DNA of 10,581 nucleotides, taken from the UHGV virus genome UHGV-0266139; one strand, given 5' to 3'. The notes beneath the pieces are model-generated. The model worked only from the letters and a program-made list of their open reading frames with translations. It did not search any database and was not told the origin of the DNA. A program made the translations under genes and the position numbers. Positions 720-10,581 of the stretch are shown here, one piece after another. Numbering within the stretch: the stretch's first letter is position 1; each line of letters starts with the position of its first letter. This DNA comes from a virus.

Positions 720-1061
720 TTAAGCAACAAGACGCAATCCTTTGTTTTTCATCTTCTGTATTTTCTTTTCTTTAACGGACTTTTCTCTATACCCTTTCAA
801 TTCTTCAAGTAGTTTAATCTGTTCCCTCAATGATTTCTTGTAGTCTTCTTGCATGGCTTTAAATCCTTCACCAAGTTTTACGTAATTATCATGTAAGGAT
901 TTGTACTTTTCCATTAGCTCATTGCATTCTTTCTCTTTAATCGAAAGTTTAATGGTCAAAAATTCACACTCAGCATTAGTCTGTTTTAGCGTTTCAGAAA
1001 GAATCATGTTTTTCTCTTTCAGAGTTTTACGGGACAGTGCTTTTTCGTTTAAAGTTGCCAT
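720..1061 (-). CDS. Hypothetical coiled-coil protein, 113 aa (MATLNEKALSRK...KGLRLVA)
   Basis: Track ORF 720..1130 begins at a TTG; the ATG at 1061 has GGAG 8 nt upstream on the minus strand. K/E-rich heptad-like sequence. No family recognised. Confidence 0.6.
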   Translation of the reverse strand: MATLNEKALSRKTLKEKNMILSETLKQTNAECEFLTIKLSIKEKECNELMEKYKSLHDNYVKLGEGFKAMQEDYKKSLREQIKLLEELKGYREKSVKEKKIQKMKNKGLRLVA

Positions 1062-2163: not shown

Positions 2164-2343
2164 TTAACAAACTTGAACGTTAATCTTTACCTGAATTTCG
2201 TATTTCTTCATTAGCTTGTAGAATCCGCTTCTATCAATTCCTTCCTTCTTAAAGAAGTTTTCCCCGCCTCGCTCAGTGTCGCTGTAAAAGCGTTTAGCAA
2301 TATCAACAATCATTTCACGAGTGAACTTAACAGGTCTAGCCAT
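2164..2343 (-). CDS. Small HTH DNA-binding protein, 59 aa (MARPVKFTREMIVDIAKRFYSDTERGGENFFKKEGIDRSGFYKLMKKYEIQVKINVQVC); first gene of the leftward operon
   Basis: Track ORF starts at a GTG (2358); the ATG at 2343 has GAGGAA 7 nt upstream. RP..F...DIA...Y....GI..FYK.MKK pattern resembles Hin/resolvase-type or Mor/C-type HTH domains (from memory). Paralogous to 5629..5856. Confidence 0.55.
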   Translation of the reverse strand: MARPVKFTREMIVDIAKRFYSDTERGGENFFKKEGIDRSGFYKLMKKYEIQVKINVQVC

Positions 2344-2443
2344 CAGTCGATTCCTCACATGTGGATTAATAATTTCTTAAAAAAGAGCATTTCGCTCTGA
2401 ACACTTGTATTTATAAAATGATTTTCAGAAAACCCTGTAAAAC

Positions 2444-2463
2444 CACTGTATATCCGATCAGTG
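2444..2463. promoter_or_regulatory. Operator-like inverted repeat CACTG-N10-CAGTG (CACTGTATATCCGATCAGTG)
   Basis: Palindromic arms seen directly; near-identical second copy at 2529-2548; lies in the control region upstream of the leftward operon. Confidence 0.35.
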
Positions 2464-2528
2464 GGAGCACGAATTGCTAAAGAGAAGATTAATTATTAAT
2501 CAATTCGTACAATATTCAACCGAAAAAG

Positions 2529-2548
2529 CACTGTATATCTAACCAGTG
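2529..2548. promoter_or_regulatory. Operator-like inverted repeat CACTG-N10-CAGTG (CACTGTATATCTAACCAGTG), second copy
   Basis: 17 of 20 positions identical to 2444-2463, same dyad arms, 85 bp away. Confidence 0.35.
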
Positions 2549-2700
2549 CTGTATGAATTAGCAGTGAATCAGGAGATTTTCAGAAGTGAACAATCATTTC
2601 ACACATGTATTTATAACGTGGAAATTCTTGCTTATCATCTATATAGGGACTGTTTAGAAAATTTCAACCCCCACCAGTGAGAAAAAGTATAAAATAATCC

Positions 2701-2729
2701 TTGACAGTTGTCAATACACTTGACCTAAG
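2701..2729. promoter_or_regulatory. TTGACA-N13-TTGACCTAAG motif (contains palindrome TTGACAGTTGTCAA), copy 1
   Basis: Same arrangement TTGACA-N13-TTGACCTAGA recurs at 4318-4346; -35-like hexamers but no good -10 at 17 bp, so promoter versus operator is undecided. Confidence 0.3.
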
Positions 2730-2912
2730 CGAGAAATGGCTATCAAATTTTTTGTTTGAAAATGGTAGATCAGGATTATCAACCTTTATAACCTATTATG
2801 GCACGGAGACCTTTTGACAATTCTTTTTAAATCATTAACTTACGCCACTTTTTGGTGATTTTTTGATTAAATAATATACAATAATTTTCTATCAAAATAT
2901 TTGATGGGAATT

Positions 2913-3105
2913 GCCCCTGAAATTCTGAATTTTTGCCCCCGAATAAAATCCCCAAGATTCCACTATCCAATTTTTGCCCCTGAAACCTACTATTTTTGCC
3001 CCTGAAATTCTGGGAAACAGTGATTTTGCCCCTCATTTTTGCCCCTGAAATGACAATAATTGCCCCTGAAAATCTAATTTTTGCCCCTGAAATTTGCCCC
3101 CGAAA
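2913..3105. repeat. Array of about 9 same-orientation direct repeats, consensus TTTTTGCCCC(T/C)GAAA, mostly 21-22 bp apart (iteron-like)
   Basis: GCCCC cores start at about 2913, 2935, 2976, 2998, 3028, 3041, 3062, 3083, 3096 (hand-counted); a further copy at 5446-5455 sits inside a terminator stem. Confidence 0.7.
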
Positions 3106-3246
3106 GGGATTGGTGAGAAAAACCATTTATAAAACATTAACTTAGCGAGGGCAAAAGCGGGGAATCGGGCGTGCATAGATATTATATAACACATTCGCTA
3201 CGCTCATGTGTAAAACCAAAAACAACAAATAACCAAAAAGATATTA

Positions 3247-3265
3247 GGAGGGCGTAGCCCGACTG
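3247..3265. repeat. About 20-bp direct repeat GGAGGGCGTAGCCCGACTG, copy 1
   Basis: Matches 3678-3697 (GGAGGGCTTTAGCCCGACTG) with one indel; the two copies bracket the CTAG-rich module. Confidence 0.5.
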
Positions 3266-3285
3266 CGCGAAGCGCCAACCAATTG

Positions 3286-3530
3286 CTTCTAGTAACAACT
3301 AATTTAAACTAGATGATACTAGATGGTCTTAGAAGGAATTAACTAGTTTGCTCGCTCGCTTCGCTCACTCTCAAACGTCTGCGACGCCACTGCGTGGCAT
3401 CGAGAATCACTTCTGAAAGGATTTTCTCGAAAGGGATTTAAACTAGTTACTAACTGATTCTAGAAAGATAGTAATAATCACTTTGAAGATAATAGTAGTT
3501 AACTGGTTACTAGATGATTCTAGATCACTT
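3286..3530. repeat. CTAG-rich repeat module: units at 3308-3326, 3441-3467 and 3501-3527 (AACT(A/G)GTTACTA..TGATTCTAGA) flanking a GC-rich core at about 3348-3410
   Basis: Eight CTAG tetramers within about 235 bp against a handful across the rest of the window (by eye, not exhaustively counted); units 3441-3467 and 3501-3527 match at 21 of 27 positions; the core contains GCTC direct repeats and a GCCAC/GTGGC dyad. Confidence 0.6.
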
Positions 3531-4603: not shown

Positions 4604-5437
4604 ATGAATACTGTTACTACTATGAATACTGCTGTTAAAACTGCTTCTGTGTCTCTGGTTGTTGATAACACCAAACCGCTGACCATGTCTTCTCGTCAGA
4701 TTGCTGAATTTACCGGAAAAGAACACCACAAAGTTAAAGTTGATATAACTAAGATGTTGAATGCTCTAGGTTATGAAGATCACGCGAAGTTTCGCGTCAT
4801 CTATTTTGACCAATACGGACGCGAACAAAACGAATATCAACTAGACGAAGAAATGACTCTGACTCTTGTCACTGGTTACGATGTTAAGCGTCGAATGGTT
4901 GTTATTCAGGAATGGAAACGACTGAAAGAAGAAAATGAAAAACTGCGTTCTCAGCAAGTCAACCCATACGCAAACATGACTAAGCTCGATTGGATTCGTG
5001 AGGCAATGGAATTGGAAGCCGCAAACGAACAACTGATTCAAGAAAAAGAACAATTAGTTGATCTTCATATCCGTAAAGCTATTGATGCACACAGTCTTAG
5101 CCGCTTATTAGGCGAAAAACGAGGCTCTACGAAGGTACAAATGATTCTGAAAGGTTTATGTGCTGCTGGTGTTCTTGAGCGTCGTCTGGATGCTTCTGGT
5201 AAGCCTAAAGGCTATGATCTGCTTCCTCCTGGCTATATGTTCGCTCGTATGTCGGCACACGGTCAGATCGAGTTCACTGCTGATGCTATCCCGCATCTCG
5301 TAAAACTCGGATTGCTTGAAGAAGAAAAGGCCGCAACTTTGAAATTGCCACAGCCGAACAACTCACGAGCAATTGTCAATAACACTGCTTTGCTGATTCG
5401 TCAGAATGTTGGATCGCTAGAACACTTCGGACTGTAA
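4604..5437 (+). CDS. Rha-family phage regulatory protein (N-terminal Rha-like domain), 277 aa, with coiled-coil middle and C-terminal domain of unknown function
   Basis: ATG at 4604 with GGGGG 8 nt upstream. N-terminal SSRQIAEFTGKEHHKV...TLTLVTGYDVKRRMVVIQEW matches my recollection of the Rha domain pattern (VAE.FGK.H..V..DI, L.VMGFTG), not a database hit. A 13-bp tandem duplication ACTATGAATACTG (4601-4613, 4619-4631) gives MNTVTTMNTAV. Confidence 0.75.
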   Translation: MNTVTTMNTAVKTASVSLVVDNTKPLTMSSRQIAEFTGKEHHKVKVDITKMLNALGYEDHAKFRVIYFDQYGREQNEYQLDEEMTLTLVTGYDVKRRMVVIQEWKRLKEENEKLRSQQVNPYANMTKLDWIREAMELEAANEQLIQEKEQLVDLHIRKAIDAHSLSRLLGEKRGSTKVQMILKGLCAAGVLERRLDASGKPKGYDLLPPGYMFARMSAHGQIEFTADAIPHLVKLGLLEEEKAATLKLPQPNNSRAIVNNTALLIRQNVGSLEHFGL

Positions 5438-5628: not shown

Positions 5629-5856
5629 TCAAAAACCTGTTGCTTCTACGATCTGACCATCACCGATCTGAACATAGAATTTAATGTCTAACTTCTTCAT
5701 ATTCTTATAGAATTGGGCGATTGAGATCCCATGTTCACTAAGAATCTGTTCTTTCGCTTCCTTACCACGATCCGCTGTATAATAAGCGTAGGCAATATCA
5801 GCCATCTGTTCAGCGTTAAAACGGGCAGGGCGACCGCGAGTAGCTTTAGTAGTCAT
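5629..5856 (-). CDS. Small HTH DNA-binding protein, 75 aa (MTTKATRGRPARFNAEQMADIAYAYY...GISIAQFYKNMKKLDIK...), paralog of 2164..2343
   Basis: Track ORF starts at GTG 5889; ATGs at 5862 and 5856, the latter 9 nt from GGAG. RGRPARF then helix-turn-helix pattern resembles the Hin/resolvase-type DNA-binding domain (GRPR arm plus HTH), from memory. The start could be 5862. Confidence 0.55.
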   Translation of the reverse strand: MTTKATRGRPARFNAEQMADIAYAYYTADRGKEAKEQILSEHGISIAQFYKNMKKLDIKFYVQIGDGQIVEATGF

Positions 5857-5891: not shown

Positions 5892-6494
5892 TTATTTAGA
5901 GGACTTACATTTTATCGGAAAAAGTTCTCCATCGTCAACCGACATAAAGAACTCTGCCTTAATCCCGTACTTCTTCAACCGTGAATAGTATGTACCCCGA
6001 CTAATATCAACCTTGCGAAGCACTTCGAAGAACTCTTTAGGATTCCTGTAATAATGGCTATAACGCACGTTAGCGAGTTCAACGAATAGTTCCCTTGTAT
6101 CACCATAGCCTTTCTTGAAAGCCTCGTTACGATAGCGTGTAATAGCGTGATTCGATCTCTTCTGTTTAAGCACTTCCCTGATCGGCTTCCACTGCAACCG
6201 ATAGATTGGACCGCCATCCACTCGATAATAACGCTTGATATCAAAATCAAACCATTCACGGACTCGCTGAAACTCTGTCTGTGATGTTCGGTGCTTCTTA
6301 AAGAAGTTATGAATATCGGTATACCCATGATCGCGATACAACTCGATTAAAATCTCTTTCGCTTCCTCACGACTAAAGCCAGATGTTGTGTAGTCGGTTT
6401 TTAAATGCTTATGCTTAACGGGTAAACGATATTCATGATCGGTACAAGACAAGGCTAATTCTAATTCATCTCTTTCTTGCTGATTAATTAGCAT
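5892..6494 (-). CDS. Basic 200-aa protein rich in R/K/Y with a C-terminal HTH module related to the two small HTH proteins; candidate DNA-binding regulator
   Basis: ATG at 6494 with AGGAGG about 4 nt upstream; C-terminal ...[26 protein letters not shown] aligns without gaps to the 75-aa protein (IS, Y, KK, IK). No nuclease motif (GIY-YIG, HNH, LAGLIDADG) seen. Confidence 0.65.
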
Positions 6495-6581: not shown

Positions 6582-8489
6582 ATGAAACTAATTTCTAATA
6601 AGGCCAAATTAAAAAAGATTCTCAGAAATGCAGCCAAATATATTACGCCACCGCCTAAACTCCTTCCATCGGAATGGTGCGAAGCGAATATGGTGCTGGT
6701 AGATGGTCCTCAAGCTGGGGATAAAGTTAAACTGCTGTCATTCCAGAAAGGCATGATTGATGCTCCTTTCCTTGAGAACAAGAAAAAGTATGTTCTGATG
6801 ACCAGTGCGCAGATCGGAAAGACTACCATCCTGAACGGCATCCTGTTTAACCAGATGGCTAACGATCCATGCAATATGATTATCGGACAATCAACCGCTA
6901 AAGAAATGTCTCAATATCTCGCTGGTAAGATCCGACCGTCTATCGAAGCATGTGATGCATTAAAAGACGTGGTTACAGACAAGAATGATCGCAATTCGGT
7001 TAATAACAATAACCAGCTACAGCTCAAAACGAATCACTTCCTGTACATGGTATCGCTTACCAGCCCATCAACCCTACGTGGTAAGACCGCAAAGGTTGGA
7101 TTACTTGACGAAATTGATGCTGCCACAGCCTCAGAAGAAGGTGATCCGGTGGCACTGGCTGCTAACCGTTTAACTACCTTTGGAGATGAAGGTCGATTAG
7201 TCGTATCCAGTACCCCGACCAGTAAGCTGGGAAGCATTAACCAGCAATGGTTATCAAGCGATATGCGTATGTTTTTTGTTCCGTGTCCTCATTGCGGGGA
7301 ACACCAGGTGATCGAGTGGGAAAACGTTCAATTTGAATGGCGTAACATCGATGGTAAGAACTTACCCGATCCTGATACCGCTCGTTATATTTGCCCCCAC
7401 TGTAAGAACGCATGGACAGAAGGGGAACGAATCAGGGCAGTAGCGCAAGGCGAGTGGAGAGCAACCCGTGAAAGTGAAGTAGCAGGATTCTGGATCAGTC
7501 GTCTGTATTCACCTTTCAGCACGATTCGCGCTTGTGTGGTTGATTTTAGTCATGCGTGGCAATCCTTTGATTTACAATCCTTTTTTAACACCGTGTTAGG
7601 CAAGGTATACGATGATCAGGACACGGCAGTAGAAGCAAATGAACTGGAACAACTCAAAACAGATGTTTCTATCGAGAATATCCCTGATGACGTGATTTTC
7701 TTGTGCTCAGGAATTGACCAGCAATTGGACCGCGCAGAATCTACCATCTTAGGTGTAGCGAAAGATAAGGTTTACATTCTGGATCACCGTAGCTTTTACG
7801 ATCATAACTGTGAACGATATGAATCCCCTGTATGGGATCGTCTGATTAACTTCAAGAAAACCAAATTCTATAACGTTAATGGTGAACGTGTGCCAATGCT
7901 CGCCAGCTTCCTTGATACATCGAACGGTCGATTCACTCAAGCCGGATACCGTATTTGCGGCAAGTGGAAGAACCTACACGCTATCAAAGGTAGTTCATCT
8001 GGTAATGCTCCAGTGATTCCGGTTAAACCTACCCGCACAGGTGGTCATGAATTGCTTATGCTGGGTGTTAACGTTGGTAAATCCGCTGTTCGTGAAATGC
8101 TGGTTAGAAACCTGAAAGATAATCCTCATATTGGCTTAGAAATATCAGAAACCGTTCCTGATGATTATCTCGATCAGCTTTTGAGTGAATCCATCAAGCG
8201 TACTACTACTGGCGTGCGTTGGGTGAAAAATCCAGGTAGTACCCGAAACGAGGCTCTCGACTGTCTGGTTTATAGCTATGCTGCTTCTCGCTACGTCCTT
8301 TCAAAAATGTCATGGGATAAACTCATTGCAATGAAAGACAGCTTAAACCGTGTTGTCGAAGAATCCGTAGAAGCTCCTAAATCGCAATCTGACGAGCAAA
8401 TAGAAGAAACTAAGCCAATCACACGACCACAACGTCAAAACATCGCCAGACGTCCAAATAGAGGCCGTAGCTGGGTAACATCGTTCTAA
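6582..8489 (+). CDS. terL: Terminase large subunit, lambda gpA type, 635 aa
   Basis: ATG with GAGGG 7 nt upstream. Walker A-like SAQIGKTT, acidic VGLLDEID, zinc-ribbon CPHCGEHQ...CPHC, and blocks [32 protein letters not shown] match lambda gpA (ACPHCGEEQ, YSPFTTW, AGIDSQLDR, RNEALDCFVYALAA) from memory; size matches (lambda 641 aa). Confidence 0.9.
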
Positions 8490-9066: not shown

Positions 9067-10509
9067 ATGTTTAATCTTTTTCGACGCAAAAAGGCGGTAG
9101 AAACTCCAGTTAAAACTAATCACCGCCAGCAACAACCAAAAATTTTCATCGACAAACAAGTAGAAAAATTCCAGAAAGATTTGTCTAAGCGTTCTTTGGG
9201 CTTGGTCGGTGATCGCATTGATGGATCGCTTCAACAAGATACTATCACAGGAACCTTCAATAAGGCTCTCAAATCGAACGGTAAGCGCCTTTATGATCAG
9301 GGTCGTACTCTGGCCTTAAACACTTCCGTAGGCAGTCGCTACACGCAATACATCACCGATATGGTGGTTGGTACTGGCCTAGATCCGAAGCCGTCAGTTG
9401 TTAAATCAAATGGAAAACTTGATAGCGCACTGAATAAGCAGATCGAGAATGCTTTCTGGAAGTGGGCGCAGAATGCTAAACGCTTCTCTCGTAACGGTCG
9501 CTTTAACTTCCGTGAACTGCTGGTAATGGCTGAACGTGAGCGCGTTATGGGTGGTGAGTGCTTCATAGTTTTAACCAAAGAAAACAATGAGTTAAATGTT
9601 TCTATCCTGTCTGCTGATAAGTGCGACTGGACGCTCAACCGTGAAGTAAGCAAAGAACGTGCTATCTATCAGGGGATAGAGTATGACGTAGAAACAATGC
9701 GCCCTGTTGCATACTGGTTTCGTAAAATCAACCTACTGACTCAGACTTACACAGGTGATAACTATCGCGTAGATGCTTCGCAAGTATGCCATTATTATCA
9801 ACCACTTGCGGCTGAATCTCTGCGTGGTGTGACTGACTTCCTGCCAGTGATCAAGGATATTGCGCATCAAGACGCATTCCGCGAAACCGCGATCATCCAG
9901 AAACGTATTGCAGCTAGCTCTATGGGCTTTATCGAACGTCCGAAAGATTCTGGTGACGATTTTGATACTGGTGAAGAGGATGAACAATATCAAGCGCCGG
10001 AAGTAGTACAGGATTTTGCACCGGGTACTATTCAGGAATTGCCGGAAGGGGCAACGATCAAGAGCATCCAGGCGACGCAAAGCGGTGATGATTTCAATTC
10101 CTTCAATGATGCGATGTTTACTAGCGTATCAATGGGCTTAGGCGTGTTTAAACAGGGCTTGACTGGTGATACTTCCCAGATCAACTACTCAGCCGCGCGT
10201 TTCGGTGAACTACTTCAACGTAACCGTGTTAAATCGCTACAAAACAAATTGATTGAAACAGTGGTATTGCCAATTTTTGAAGCATATCTACGCCATTATT
10301 CCGCGCGTGGTATTGTTCCGATTCGTATTACTGCAATCCCGCATATTATCGATAACACTACTATTATTCGTCCGCGTTTTGAGTCCGTCGATGTTATTAA
10401 AGATGTGAACGCTGATATTGCTTTAATTGATAACGGACTTAGAATCTATCCCAAAAGGATTTTATTCCAGACAATGATGCTGCAAGCAAAATGCAGCATC
10501 GCCTCGTAG
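9067..10509 (+). CDS. Portal protein, lambda gpB type, 480 aa
   Basis: ATG with AAGGGG 6 nt upstream. Blocks FWKWAQNAKRF...NFRELLVMAERERVMGGECFIV and GLGV...YSAAR parallel lambda gpB (AAWKEFAED...TFTMMIREGV...GELFV; GLGVSYEQLSRNYAQMSYSTAR) from memory; correct synteny after terminase and gpW. Confidence 0.85.
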   Translation: MFNLFRRKKAVETPVKTNHRQQQPKIFIDKQVEKFQKDLSKRSLGLVGDRIDGSLQQDTITGTFNKALKSNGKRLYDQGRTLALNTSVGSRYTQYITDMVVGTGLDPKPSVVKSNGKLDSALNKQIENAFWKWAQNAKRFSRNGRFNFRELLVMAERERVMGGECFIVLTKENNELNVSILSADKCDWTLNREVSKERAIYQGIEYDVETMRPVAYWFRKINLLTQTYTGDNYRVDASQVCHYYQPLAAESLRGVTDFLPVIKDIAHQDAFRETAIIQKRIAASSMGFIERPKDSGDDFDTGEEDEQYQAPEVVQDFAPGTIQELPEGATIKSIQATQSGDDFNSFNDAMFTSVSMGLGVFKQGLTGDTSQINYSAARFGELLQRNRVKSLQNKLIETVVLPIFEAYLRHYSARGIVPIRITAIPHIIDNTTIIRPRFESVDVIKDVNADIALIDNGLRIYPKRILFQTMMLQAKCSIAS

Positions 10510-10581
10510 TTTTCGACTTTCTTCTCCCATCGCGTCAGTATGCGGCGAAAGCGATTCATCCAGCTATGTGTTCTTTCCACA
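10491..10581 (+). CDS. 5-prime end of the next gene (MQHRLVVFDFLLPSRQYAAK...), overlapping the portal stop by 19 nt and running off the window; by synteny possibly a head protease or scaffold gene
   Basis: ATG at 10491 in a different frame from the portal, open to the window end; the 19-nt overlap mirrors the lambda B/C overlap. No clear Shine-Dalgarno and no sequence match to lambda gpC, so weak. Confidence 0.3.
   Translation, partial: MQHRLVVFDFLLPSRQYAAKAIHPAMCSFH

Follow-up and report, generated by a model that had tools for sequence, protein, structure and literature searches.

The control region of the leftward early operon carries three 20-bp dyads that, judging from their sequence, are probably operators bound by LexA, the SOS repressor of the host. 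The 10,581-nt stretch of DNA analysed (hereafter, the window) had been predicted to contain operator-type sites upstream of this operon, and both the match of the sites to the LexA motif and their conservation support that prediction. Two of the dyads had been recognized, and these are as claimed (CACTGTATATCCGATCAGTG and CACTGTATATCTAACCAGTG, identical at 17 of 20 positions; boxes 1 and 2 in Table 1). The count of two was too low, as a third site (box 3), which shares 2 bp with the end of box 2, had been overlooked. Their positions are -120, -205 and -223 relative to the first leftward start codon.

The element is an ~35-kb prophage that splits ycdX (at locus L001, the flank is ghrA/ycdX). 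Of 5426 complete E. coli genomes, 70 carry it, and close relatives are present in Salmonella chromosomes. With the element sitting in the chromosomes of E. coli, as well as Salmonella, the specificity of E. coli LexA applies, for which the consensus is TACTG(TA)5CAGTA (quoted in PMC12527982). The prophage, an integrated tailed phage, encodes a large serine recombinase as well as a terminase and a portal of the lambda type. Its nearest TerL and capsid matches are those of Escherichia phage DCP80, at only 43–45% identity, which leaves it with no characterised relative. Searches against phages with the window (megablast) and with the 320-aa and 200-aa proteins (tblastn) gave no match, Rfam and tRNA scans of the window were empty, and a literature search on the ycdX prophage returned no relevant result.

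The 59-aa product of the first gene, which had been called an HTH protein, has no sequence match in Pfam, PHROG, NCBIfam or PDB; the best Foldseek hits in PDB are HTH DNA-binding domains, at E values of 1.3 or worse, which are not significant. For the 320-aa protein there was no family match, and sequence searches gave no function (a Bacteroidota MAG match, obtained in a search of genome contigs, was a coiled-coil false lead). The gene-2 family co-varies with the type of iteron in the adjacent gap across 13 loci, and its product is probably an iteron-binding, replication-initiator-like protein. No recognisable replication gene was found in the prophage family.

Table 1. Features of the control region and the leftward operon, in window coordinates
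Feature	Position	Strand	Remarks
LexA box 1 (predicted), CACTGTATATCCGATCAGTG	2444..2463	none	starts 120 nt before the gene 1 ATG
LexA box 2 (predicted), CACTGTATATCTAACCAGTG	2529..2548	none	strongest of the sites
LexA box 3 (predicted), TGCTGTATGAATTAGCAGTG	2547..2566	none	core CTGT-N9-CAG at 2549-2564
Gene 1, 59-aa three-helix protein	2164..2343	-	AF2 model: 3 helices, pLDDT 78
Gene 2, 320 aa	1087..2049	-	variable N-terminal domain plus coiled coil
Gene 3, 113-aa coiled-coil protein	720..1061	-	called in L001-L005; weak matches only
Iteron array, 8-10 copies of (A/T)TTGCCCC(T/C)GAA (TTTGCCCCTGAAA)	2910..3104	none	upstream of the control region
ACAC-type repeat, ACACTTGTATTTATAA	2401..2416	-	minus strand TTATAAATACAAGTGT; proximal -10-like TATAAA, 2415..2410
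ACAC-type repeat, second copy, ACACATGTATTTATAA	2601..2616	-	distal -10-like TATAAA, 2615..2610
GATTTTCAGAA, copy 1	2420..2430	none	in palindrome TTTTCAGAAAA (2422-2432), which box 1 and the proximal -10-like motif flank
GATTTTCAGAA, copy 2	2575..2585	none	within block 2574-2597
Inverted repeat, ACGAATTG ... CAATTCGT	2469..2508	none	arms 2469-2476 and 2501-2508
Dyad AGCA-CGAAT-TGCT(AAAG)	2466..2482	none	adjoins box 1; invariant in 24/24 type-A alleles
Sigma-70 promoter, TTGACA-17-TATACT	2686..2714	-	11/12 match, strong
Terminator-like hairpin, AGAGCGAAATGCTCT, then T-run	2384..2398	-	directly precedes the gene 1 RBS

Motif match, conservation and modularity of the sites

The sites had been likened to half of a LexA box only, a description that does not hold: every one of them is a full CTG-N10-CAG, a single position away from CTGT-N8-ACAG, with T, C or G in the window in place of the A. 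All three also fit CTGT-N9-CAG. In gammaproteobacterial LexA sites, the 16-bp palindromic core is CTGT-N8-ACAG, of which CTG-N10-CAG is the invariant portion. We scored them with a PWM derived from 21 E. coli SOS boxes (training range, 12.9–24.1 bits) and with an HI-type matrix, both reconstructed from literature SOS-box sequences and distinct from the published Lewis matrix. By the rebuilt PWM, the boxes score within the range of proven E. coli sites. Box 2 lies in the middle of the training range (19.3 bits) and has the best HI-type score of the window (4.9); box 1 (13.3 bits, HI-type 10.4; G+C in its spacer) and the window's version of box 3 (12.9 bits, HI-type 9.7) are weak. The boxes account for three of just four PWM matches of ≥8 bits in 10.6 kb, are the three best in the window, and are the sole intergenic matches of ≥11 bits in 66 kb of prophage and flanks. 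Their HI-type scores are likewise the three lowest of the window, the next non-box site scoring 11.3 and others >14. The motif CTGT-N9-CAG occurs six times in the window versus 0.68 expected (none of 200 shuffles gave six), with three of the copies packed in 121 bp, and CACTG-N10-CAGTG with ≤1 mismatch is found three times versus 0.14 expected.

To follow the sites across relatives, we compared 24 distinct alleles of the boxed cassette (type A), drawn from both E. coli and Salmonella; carriers of type A include E. coli GN4741, PE15 and HeN100. Boxes 2 and 3 are spaced 18 bp apart in all 24, and boxes 1 and 2 are 85 bp apart in 22 of them. CTG and CAG are intact in every allele at boxes 1 and 2, and the arms of box 3 are unbroken in 21 (natural changes are CTG to CCG in L029/L030 and the CAG equivalent to CAC, in gene orientation, in L044/L045). 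Spacers, by contrast, turn over. That of box 1 is swapped among GATCGGATAT, TGTGTAAATAT and TGTGAAAATAT, and the Salmonella boxes score 16.7–22.6 bits although their spacers are replaced (up to 21.3 bits for box 1 and 21.4 for box 3). In most E. coli alleles, site 3 is TGCTGTATGAATTAACAGTG (18.2 bits), a perfect CTGT-N8-ACAG, as are several Salmonella sites. Overall, 2 of 18 columns vary in the CTG/CAG arms versus 19 of 30 in the spacers (Fisher P = 7e-4; as the aligned alleles are related, P values are indicative only). Conservation per position follows the information content of the LexA motif (Spearman 0.54), with the positions of LexA contact being conserved.

The boxes are also modular with respect to phage genes. 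The same boxes precede at least four diverged 59-aa alleles (48–57% identity), a near-identical 59/60-aa allele is found with boxes (L025) and without them (L009), and both gene-2/iteron families are represented. A box-less sister cassette (type B), which carries TAACA repeats and AGCA-N5-TGCT dyads, stands at the corresponding position in prophages that are collinear in other respects, as would be expected of an exchangeable module for a host factor. This independent assortment, together with the replacement by type B, points to a host factor and argues against the 59-aa protein, which had been suggested for footprinting together with host factors. Co-variation with an adjacent DNA-binding protein, as for CI/Cro-type operators, is not seen. 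No CI, Cro, XRE or S24 repressor was found in the prophage ORFs scanned (Pfam, PHROGs, NCBIfam), a divergent or novel repressor being possible, and the only antirepressor-like gene, Rha (4604-5437), is without a box.

Promoters, flanking repeats and the leader

The leftward sigma-70 promoter is the only match above background in the region 2340-2780 (14.1 bits versus ≤8.1 for other candidates; shuffled sequence gives ~4 matches of ≥7 bits). It is conserved in type-A alleles and has equivalents in type B, Salmonella and Proteus, as does the terminator-like hairpin. In L027-L030, the stem of this hairpin is preserved by a G-U pair possible solely in the leftward RNA, and G-U-compatible changes preserve two stems in that RNA only. 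The single strong promoter and the leftward-only retention of stems lend support to leftward transcription. With respect to this promoter, the boxes lie downstream, at about +113 to +235, and they are also downstream of the distal -10-like motif, at about +37 to +74; box 1 is at about -41 to -60 relative to the proximal one. No convincing -35/-10 hexamer is overlapped by any box, and the first ATG is 120–223 nt away. Such positions relative to promoters are unusual for E. coli LexA repression. Candidate transcription starts would fall at 2679, ~2603, ~2485 and ~2403, with a rightward one at ~2520.

In the original prediction, the elements around the boxes were taken as a regulatory region duplicated in inverted arrangement. 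Their order is indeed mirrored, but the flanking repeats are direct, not reverse-complemented, so there is no inverted duplication; moreover, Salmonella L037-L039 have a consensus promoter in place of distal ACACATGTATTTATAA, with the boxes retained. The two ACAC-type repeats exist as 16-nt elements identical at 15 positions (ACACTTGTATTTATAA and ACACATGTATTTATAA), their ends having been set 1–2 nt too far, at 2418 and 2617. Both copies of GATTTTCAGAA are exactly where they had been placed, and the 8-bp inverted repeat is real, its coordinates having been off by one base. Among 300 shuffles of 2360-2720, a 16-mer repeat with ≤1 mismatch arose in 0.3%, an exact 11-nt direct repeat in 2.3% and an inverted repeat of 8 bp (loop, ≤40 nt) in 28%, so the last element, taken by itself, does not exceed chance. 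It can be extended, with imperfections, to 13 nt (2469-2481/2496-2508), and in Salmonella the complementarity of its arms falls to 7/8 or 6/8. One of these arms belongs to the invariant AGCA-N5-TGCT dyad, a candidate site of a second factor, which occurs twice in type B.

The flanking repeats look like two -10 regions plus a spacer palindrome. The proximal TATAAA is 28 nt downstream of box 1, and is also found in type B and Proteus; TTTATAAATA is unchanged in the 24 alleles, at a constant distance to box 1. This motif is without a well-spaced -35, TTTACA being 19–20 nt upstream. The palindrome containing copy 1 of GATTTTCAGAA is TTTTCGAAAA, a perfect palindrome, or degenerate in other alleles. 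The combination of TTTACA, 19–20 nt, TATAAA and a spacer palindrome has the look of a MerR-type promoter; spacer length is inconstant, and there is no MerR-like protein. For leftward transcription, the distal TATAAA precedes box 3 by 43 nt, with ATGATA as the E. coli equivalent of a -35. In a MAFFT alignment, the promoter of Salmonella L037-L039 (TTGACA-N17-TATAAT) falls opposite this motif, ~40 nt upstream of box 3. The block holding copy 2 of GATTTTCAGAA is invariant in 12 aligned E. coli type-A alleles and partly retained in Salmonella.

A number of other candidates were set aside. Two internal promoters, TTGAAT-16-AATAAT (2519..2492) and TTTACA-17-TTTTAT, score no better than shuffles and are not kept in all Salmonella alleles. 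GGAGCACGAATTGCT was considered as a sigma-54 promoter and dismissed on inspection (spacing 2 nt short, AG instead of GG). An SOS-induced toxin-like peptide was likewise dismissed, as neither the frame nor the stop is conserved for the 23-aa (2586-2657, behind AGGAG) or the 44-aa (2546-2680) candidate, both small rightward ORFs beneath or beside the boxes.

Alternative readings and proposed control

If the dyads were operators of a phage regulator (the 59-aa protein, the 75-/200-aa paralogues or Rha), their resemblance to LexA boxes would be incidental. The sites do lie directly upstream of a gene for a small three-helix protein, their number is reminiscent of OR1–OR3, and an extra invariant dyad adjoins box 1. 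We nevertheless regard this as highly improbable: the 59-aa allele does not co-vary with the sites and in near-identical form accompanies box-less type B, conservation tracks the LexA motif at each position, CTGT-N8-ACAG is matched perfectly in most relatives, and the scanned ORFs yielded no S24/CI-like protein. That the repeats are functionless relics of local duplication or recombination is scarcely credible. The similarity of sites 1 and 2 (17/20) and the mosaic nature of the region, with its cassette swapping, would suit such an origin, but position-specific conservation across E. coli and Salmonella, where spacers turn over and the geometry stays fixed, speaks against it, as do the chance statistics.

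Other readings concern what the boxes control and at what level they act. LexA may bind them and yet govern a rightward or antisense transcript from the core between boxes 1 and 2, one that opposes the strong leftward promoter or activates the iteron region (2910-3104) by transcription. A -10-like TACAAT (2508-2513) would put boxes 2 and 3 at about +9 to +46, the classic position just downstream; TACA(A/T/G)T is present in all E. coli and most Salmonella alleles (TTGATT-17-TACATT in Salmonella), TTGCTA-N17-TAATCA is retained in types A and B, and the iterons are on the right of the boxes. However, the rightward hexamer pairs are weak, none exceeding shuffle background, the -10 is missing in L044-L046, frameshifts and loss of stops in the 23- and 44-aa ORFs leave no conserved rightward ORF, and two stems keep pairing solely in the leftward RNA; such a transcript is distinctly unlikely to be the target. 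It is also very unlikely that the palindromes act chiefly as RNA, with helices in the ~300-nt leader governing read-through at the hairpin as an attenuator or in RNA-based immunity. RNAalifold does give a long-range fold (-56 kcal/mol) that pairs box 3 with box 1, L031 has one compensatory change (C-G to A-U) between these boxes, several changes allow G-U pairing, and the hairpin and T-run before the gene are conserved in all cassette types. Palindromes of the same family pair in any RNA fold, which makes an RNA role possible. Any like palindromes would pair in silico. Double changes affect just 2 of 69 pairs (covariation term, -1.6 kcal/mol), and a helix needs no CTGTAT...ACAG and leaves invariant arms with free spacers unexplained.

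The likeliest scheme is that leftward transcription into the operon is repressed by LexA and that the SOS response relieves this repression. In an undamaged lysogen, LexA dimers would sit on the boxes and keep leftward transcription from the operon. DNA damage would trigger RecA-stimulated self-cleavage of LexA, freeing the boxes and turning the operon on, so that early gene expression, and probably replication, would be SOS-inducible. The boxes bracket a conserved core, and since they are downstream of the sole strong promoter and the distal -10-like motif, LexA probably exerts its effect from within the first part of the transcribed region, as it does downstream of P1 in phage GIL01. Another possibility is that a weak internal promoter is its target.

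Comparison with known systems

LexA-controlled prophage genes include tum, the antirepressor gene of coliphage 186, the antirepressor genes of the Gifsy prophages of Salmonella, and antC of N15. Here, as there, boxes of the CTGT-N8-ACAG type lie in a prophage regulatory region. In those prophages, LexA controls an antirepressor directed against a CI-type repressor, whereas in the ycdX prophage a CI-type repressor was not detected, the operon begins with the three-helix protein and the probable iteron-binding protein, and the three boxes have a fixed 18/85-bp geometry with none over a clear core promoter. Host LexA boxes in a prophage imply that cleavage of LexA, rather than self-cleavage of a repressor, would link induction to DNA damage. 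'SOS-dependent prophages' are scored by PSOSP (PMC12527982). The boxes are in this sense an expected type of feature, a familiar form of control in a previously unstudied E. coli/Salmonella prophage. If LexA binds them, a prophage carried by ~1% of complete E. coli genomes, and its Salmonella relatives, would be wired directly to the SOS response, and DNA-damaging antibiotics should induce type-A copies, perhaps not box-less type-B ones. The two cassettes, in collinear prophages, offer a natural isogenic-like pair for SOS-dependent versus SOS-independent induction and for module exchange.

In GIL01, a Bacillus tectivirus, LexA sites downstream of the P1 start, in a region of tandem promoters, govern the early/replication operon (PMC4551915). 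Similarly, the boxes described here follow a strong promoter and the distal -10-like motif and precede what is probably a replication operon; the geometry is compatible with GIL01-type control, and no CI-type repressor was found in the ORFs scanned. The host phylum and LexA motif differ, however, and GIL01 is a linear plasmid-prophage that needs the small co-factor gp7, whereas the present element is an integrated tailed phage. Given this negative result, the role of maintenance repressor could fall to LexA. By analogy with GIL01, the phage might have no repressor of its own, LexA at the three leader boxes might maintain lysogeny, and cassette exchange (type A with boxes versus type B) might toggle SOS-dependence; we consider this possible, if unlikely. 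Were LexA alone to maintain lysogeny, this would be the first such case among integrated enterobacterial siphoviruses of the lambda-terminase type. The absence of a recognisable repressor or replication gene, combined with the iteron/gene-2 co-variation, makes this prophage family a tractable system in which to seek a new lysogeny/replication module.

Host LexA is a direct repressor of phage early/replication genes in Vibrio CTXphi, which, unlike the ycdX prophage, is filamentous and also uses RstR. Tandem SOS boxes are known at lexA, recN, ydjM and colicin operons. The control region resembles these promoters in having several LexA boxes, strong beside weaker, but theirs overlap or directly follow the -10, are spaced ~15–21 bp, and include no third box 85 bp away. 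Three dyad sites between an early operon and a non-coding/regulatory region also recall lambdoid OR/OL. There, the operators (CI/Cro) co-vary with the adjacent repressor, whereas the sites described here are independent of the small protein and match the host LexA motif.

Three dyads ahead of the leftward operon

Three dyads (boxes 1, 2 and 3) lie in the leftward operon's control region, and each is a complete CTG-N10-CAG box. The original prediction described operator-like sites here, a view that is supported by our analysis, and both dyads it listed are real (17 of 20 positions identical). However, box 3, which overlaps the end of box 2 by 2 bp, had been overlooked, and the suggestion that the sites resemble only half a LexA box is not supported. 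Because the host is E. coli, the relevant reference is the SOS-box consensus of that organism, TACTG(TA)5CAGTA (PMC12527982). We scored the sequence with a position matrix assembled from 21 literature SOS boxes of E. coli, which themselves span 12.9-24.1 bits. Site 2 scores 19.3 bits, site 1 13.3 bits and site 3 12.9 bits. Just one further 20-mer in the window reaches 8 bits, and no further intergenic match of 11 bits or more was found in 66 kb of prophage and flanks. By a heterology-index-type score, the three sites rank first to third in the window (4.9, 9.7 and 10.4). The window contains six copies of CTGT-N9-CAG where 0.68 would be expected, and three of them fall within 121 bp. Overall, boxes 1-3 are very likely bona fide LexA sites.

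The additional 20-mer, a perfect CTGT-N8-ACAG palindrome within the 320-aa gene (matrix score 12.6, heterology-index-type score 11.3), is also present in prophages with a box-less control cassette. This may represent a weak fourth LexA site or a chance occurrence (estimated at ∼0.14 per window).

The other repeats reported for this region were found in the sequence as well. Among shuffles of 2360-2720, 2.3% produce an 11-mer repeat and 0.3% a 16-mer repeat. As for the 8-bp inverted repeat, it is present one base away from where it had been placed, and is not above chance, since 28% of the shuffles yield one. The flanking repeats are in direct rather than inverted orientation, and hence the order of the elements is mirrored without their orientation being mirrored. 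This argues against an inverted duplication of the regulatory region, as had been proposed.

Features of the window (two dots, minus-strand features read 5' to 3')
Feature	Position	Sequence or remark
113-aa coiled-coil protein gene	720-1061	leftward operon
320-aa protein gene (gene 2)	1087-2049	leftward operon
Palindrome in gene 2	1578-1597	GGCTGTTAAAGAATACAGCA
G+C-rich 12-bp hairpin	2092-2131	AAGCCTCC...GGAGGCTT
59-aa protein gene	2164-2343	leftward operon
Motif shared by 59-aa gene and leader	2305-2318; 2589-2602	AACAATCATTTCAC
Similar pair	2351-2363; 2596-2608	CACATGTGAGGAA; ACATGTGTGAAAT
Terminator-like hairpin	2398..2384	
16-mer repeat	2401-2416; 2601-2616	ACAC(T/A)TGTATTTATAA
-10-like motif, proximal; distal	2415..2410; 2615..2610	TATAAA
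11-mer repeat	2420-2430; 2575-2585	GATTTTCAGAA
Box 1	2444-2463	CACTGTATATCCGATCAGTG
8-bp inverted repeat	2469-2476; 2501-2508	
Rightward -10-like hexamer	2508-2513	TACAAT
Box 2	2529-2548	CACTGTATATCTAACCAGTG
Box 3	2547-2566	TGCTGTATGAATTAGCAGTG
Leader hairpin	2646-2672	GGGGGTTG...CAGTCCC
Strong leftward promoter	2714..2686	TTGACA-17-TATACT
Palindrome at its -35	2701-2714	TTGACA-GT-TGTCAA
Iteron array	2910-3104	(A/T)TTGCCCC(T/C)GAA, 8-10 copies
Related; inverted iteron copy	near 3026; near 3146-3156	
Repeated motif in gap	3255; 3687	TAGCCCGACTG
G+C-rich inverted repeats	3261-3274; 3357-3370	
Second repeat family	3307-3525	ACTAGATGAT(A/T)CTAGA, AACT(A/G)GTTACTA...GATTCTAGA
Rha/antirepressor-like gene	4604-5437	
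75-aa paralogue gene	5629-5856 (-)	
200-aa paralogue gene	5892-6494 (-)	
Lambda-type large terminase gene	6582-8489	
Lambda-family portal gene	9067-10509	
IS5-family match	10438-10581	ISPrst3-like

Conservation of the boxes among related prophages

Among 5426 complete E. coli genomes, 31 carry the control cassette with three boxes (type A), which is the type found in the window. Members of the 59-aa protein family are also encoded by prophages of Salmonella enterica and Proteus mirabilis, there again beside a PHP/ycdX gene. The three boxes recur in Salmonella relatives (16.7-22.6 bits), a single Salmonella locus (L047) has the box-less sister cassette (type B), and no LexA box was found in the Proteus loci. 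The distance between boxes 3 and 2 is 18 bp in all 24 distinct type-A alleles, and that between boxes 2 and 1 is 85 bp in 22 of them. Variable columns number 2 of 18 in the CTG/CAG arms versus 19 of 30 in the spacers (Fisher P = 7e-4, only indicative because the sequences are related), and conservation per position tracks LexA information content (Spearman 0.54). Spacers have been swapped wholesale between lineages; box 1, for example, can read GATCGGATAT, TGTGTAAATAT or TGTGAAAATAT. This phylogenetic footprint excludes the idea that the repeats are non-functional relics.

The dyads might instead be operators of a phage-encoded regulator. At least four alleles of the 59-aa protein, sharing 48-57% identity, are found behind the same boxes, a nearly identical 59-aa allele is found in both type A (locus L025) and type B (locus L009), and the boxes accompany both gene-2 families. 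Judged from these combinations, the boxes are independent of the adjoining phage proteins, and the pattern is that predicted for the site of a constant host factor, not for an operator of the neighbouring small protein. Lack of co-variation with the 59-aa allele thus leaves a phage-encoded regulator disfavoured.

Type B replaces the equivalent of window 2400-2700 in loci L007, L009-L019 and L033 (E. coli) and L047, the prophage being otherwise collinear. It contains no LexA box, but TAACA repeats, two AGCA-N5-TGCT dyads (AGCA-N5-TGCTAAAG) and two tandem consensus leftward promoters; the TAACA-repeat run overlaps ATAACA-17-TATAAA. Type B is presumably a variant of the switch that does not depend on SOS.

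Leader architecture and mode of control

Between 2340 and 2780, a single promoter match exceeds background (11/12, 14.1 bits), and every relative retains this strong leftward promoter or has an equivalent of it. The module then continues leftward through the distal -10-like motif, boxes 3 and 2, a conserved core, an invariant AGCA-N5-TGCT dyad, box 1, a palindrome, the proximal -10-like motif and a hairpin to the operon. Both -10-like motifs belong to the 16-mer, which on the minus strand reads TTATAAATACA(A/T)GTGT. Exactly 28 nt separate box 1 from the proximal copy, which is downstream of it and invariant in 24/24 alleles; the distal copy is found 43 nt upstream of box 3, and in a MAFFT alignment a perfect TTGACA-17-TATAAT promoter of Salmonella loci L037-L039 stands opposite it. 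The palindrome between box 1 and the proximal motif, TTTTCAGAAAA (TTTTCGAAAA in other alleles), includes the 11-mer. The terminator-like hairpin directly precedes the ribosome-binding site in all cassette types, and two stems stay paired via G-U pairs possible only in leftward RNA.

No convincing core promoter overlapping any box was found, and for this reason we infer that LexA would block leftward transcription from the early transcribed region; alternatively, it might act on a weak internal promoter. SOS-induced cleavage of LexA would relieve the block, and the boxes probably make the leftward operon SOS-inducible. LexA might instead control a rightward or antisense transcript from the core, with the TACAAT hexamer placing boxes 2 and 3 around +9 to +46 relative to its start. 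However, the rightward hexamers are weak, some Salmonella alleles have lost them, and no rightward ORF is conserved. RNAalifold gives a fold in which box 3 pairs with box 1, and locus L031 has one compensatory change; these observations suggest a role of RNA structure, although like palindromes always pair in silico, and such pairing leaves the LexA-shaped conservation profile unexplained.

LexA boxes in prophage regulatory regions are already known, examples being 186 tum, the Gifsy antirepressors and N15 antC, and the three-box region would be a further case, in an uncharacterised prophage family. Less ordinary are the three boxes in rigid 18/85-bp geometry, distant from any clear core promoter, the lack of a detectable phage repressor among the prophage ORFs scanned, and the existence of a natural box-less sister cassette. 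In addition, the proposed control would act on a probable replication operon, not on an antirepressor. The action proposed for the leader would resemble that in GIL01, where LexA acts downstream of the P1 start (PMC4551915). Prophages can be scored for LexA boxes in regulatory regions with the PSOSP tool (PMC12527982).

Several other features of the leader were observed. In the strong promoter, the -35 element makes up one half of a perfect palindrome, which other alleles have as TTGACACATGTCAA. Just 3' of the start of this promoter is a conserved hairpin, followed by ATATAGATGATA; the hairpin is also found in type B, elsewhere in the leader. One motif from inside the 59-aa gene's 5' coding region recurs in the leader beside the distal TATAAA, and CACATGTGAGGAA resembles ACATGTGTGAAAT, so part of the leader has the look of a degenerate copy of this gene's 5' region.

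Operon proteins, iterons and the prophage

The 59-aa protein has no family match and no PDB sequence match. AlphaFold predicts three helices (pLDDT 78), and the best Foldseek matches are HTH DNA-binding domains, none of them significant; the label 'HTH' is hence plausible but unproven. Two paralogues are encoded divergently upstream of the large terminase gene, with ∼35% identity over the length of the 59-aa protein (75-aa) or over ∼54 residues (200-aa), and neither has a family match. The G+C-rich hairpin between the 59-aa and 320-aa genes has a T-run on the plus strand only, and would thus terminate rightward (antisense) transcription, not the leftward operon transcript.

The N-terminal domain of gene 2 is not conserved between lineages, and its family co-varies with the iteron type in the right-hand 1.3-kb ORF-free gap of E. 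coli, Salmonella and Proteus relatives (compared: the window, L033 and L034-L049). Family 1 goes with TTTGCCCCTGAAA (window, L033, L038, L049), family 2 with CCTACACTA (seven Salmonella loci) and family 3 with CTAGGGATA (Proteus). From this co-variation we infer that gene 2 encodes an iteron-binding protein, most simply a replication initiator, and the iterons and the 320-aa gene may represent an origin/initiator pair of a new type. The gap also contains a second repeat family, inverted repeats and repeated TAGCCCGACTG, which might be cos, partition or origin elements.

The large terminase and portal genes, together with an encoded head-tail connector, identify a tailed phage. Contigs encoding the 320-aa protein carry E. 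coli ghrA and truncated ycdX in the flank, and matches to the window were found in 70 of 5426 complete E. coli genomes (90-95% identity). Strain GN4741 carries the element as a ∼35-kb prophage that splits ycdX; a Nu1-like small terminase lies at its left end, and the opposite end has a large serine recombinase. Neither a CI, Cro, XRE or S24 repressor nor a known replication gene was detected among the prophage ORFs scanned, and comparison with phages found no close characterised relative. The small terminase gene (PHROG 57) lies at the attL end, left of window position 1 (10518-11069 in L001, 17438-17989 in L022), ∼6 kb from the large terminase gene and with regulatory and early genes between, an unusual split of packaging genes. 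The right end of the window matches IS elements of Pantoea, Edwardsiella, Proteus and Vibrio plasmids (84-98% identity), and beyond 10446 the window is no longer homologous to intact prophages. An IS therefore appears to interrupt the portal ORF of this copy; the ORF has 480 aa here and 503 aa in intact copies.
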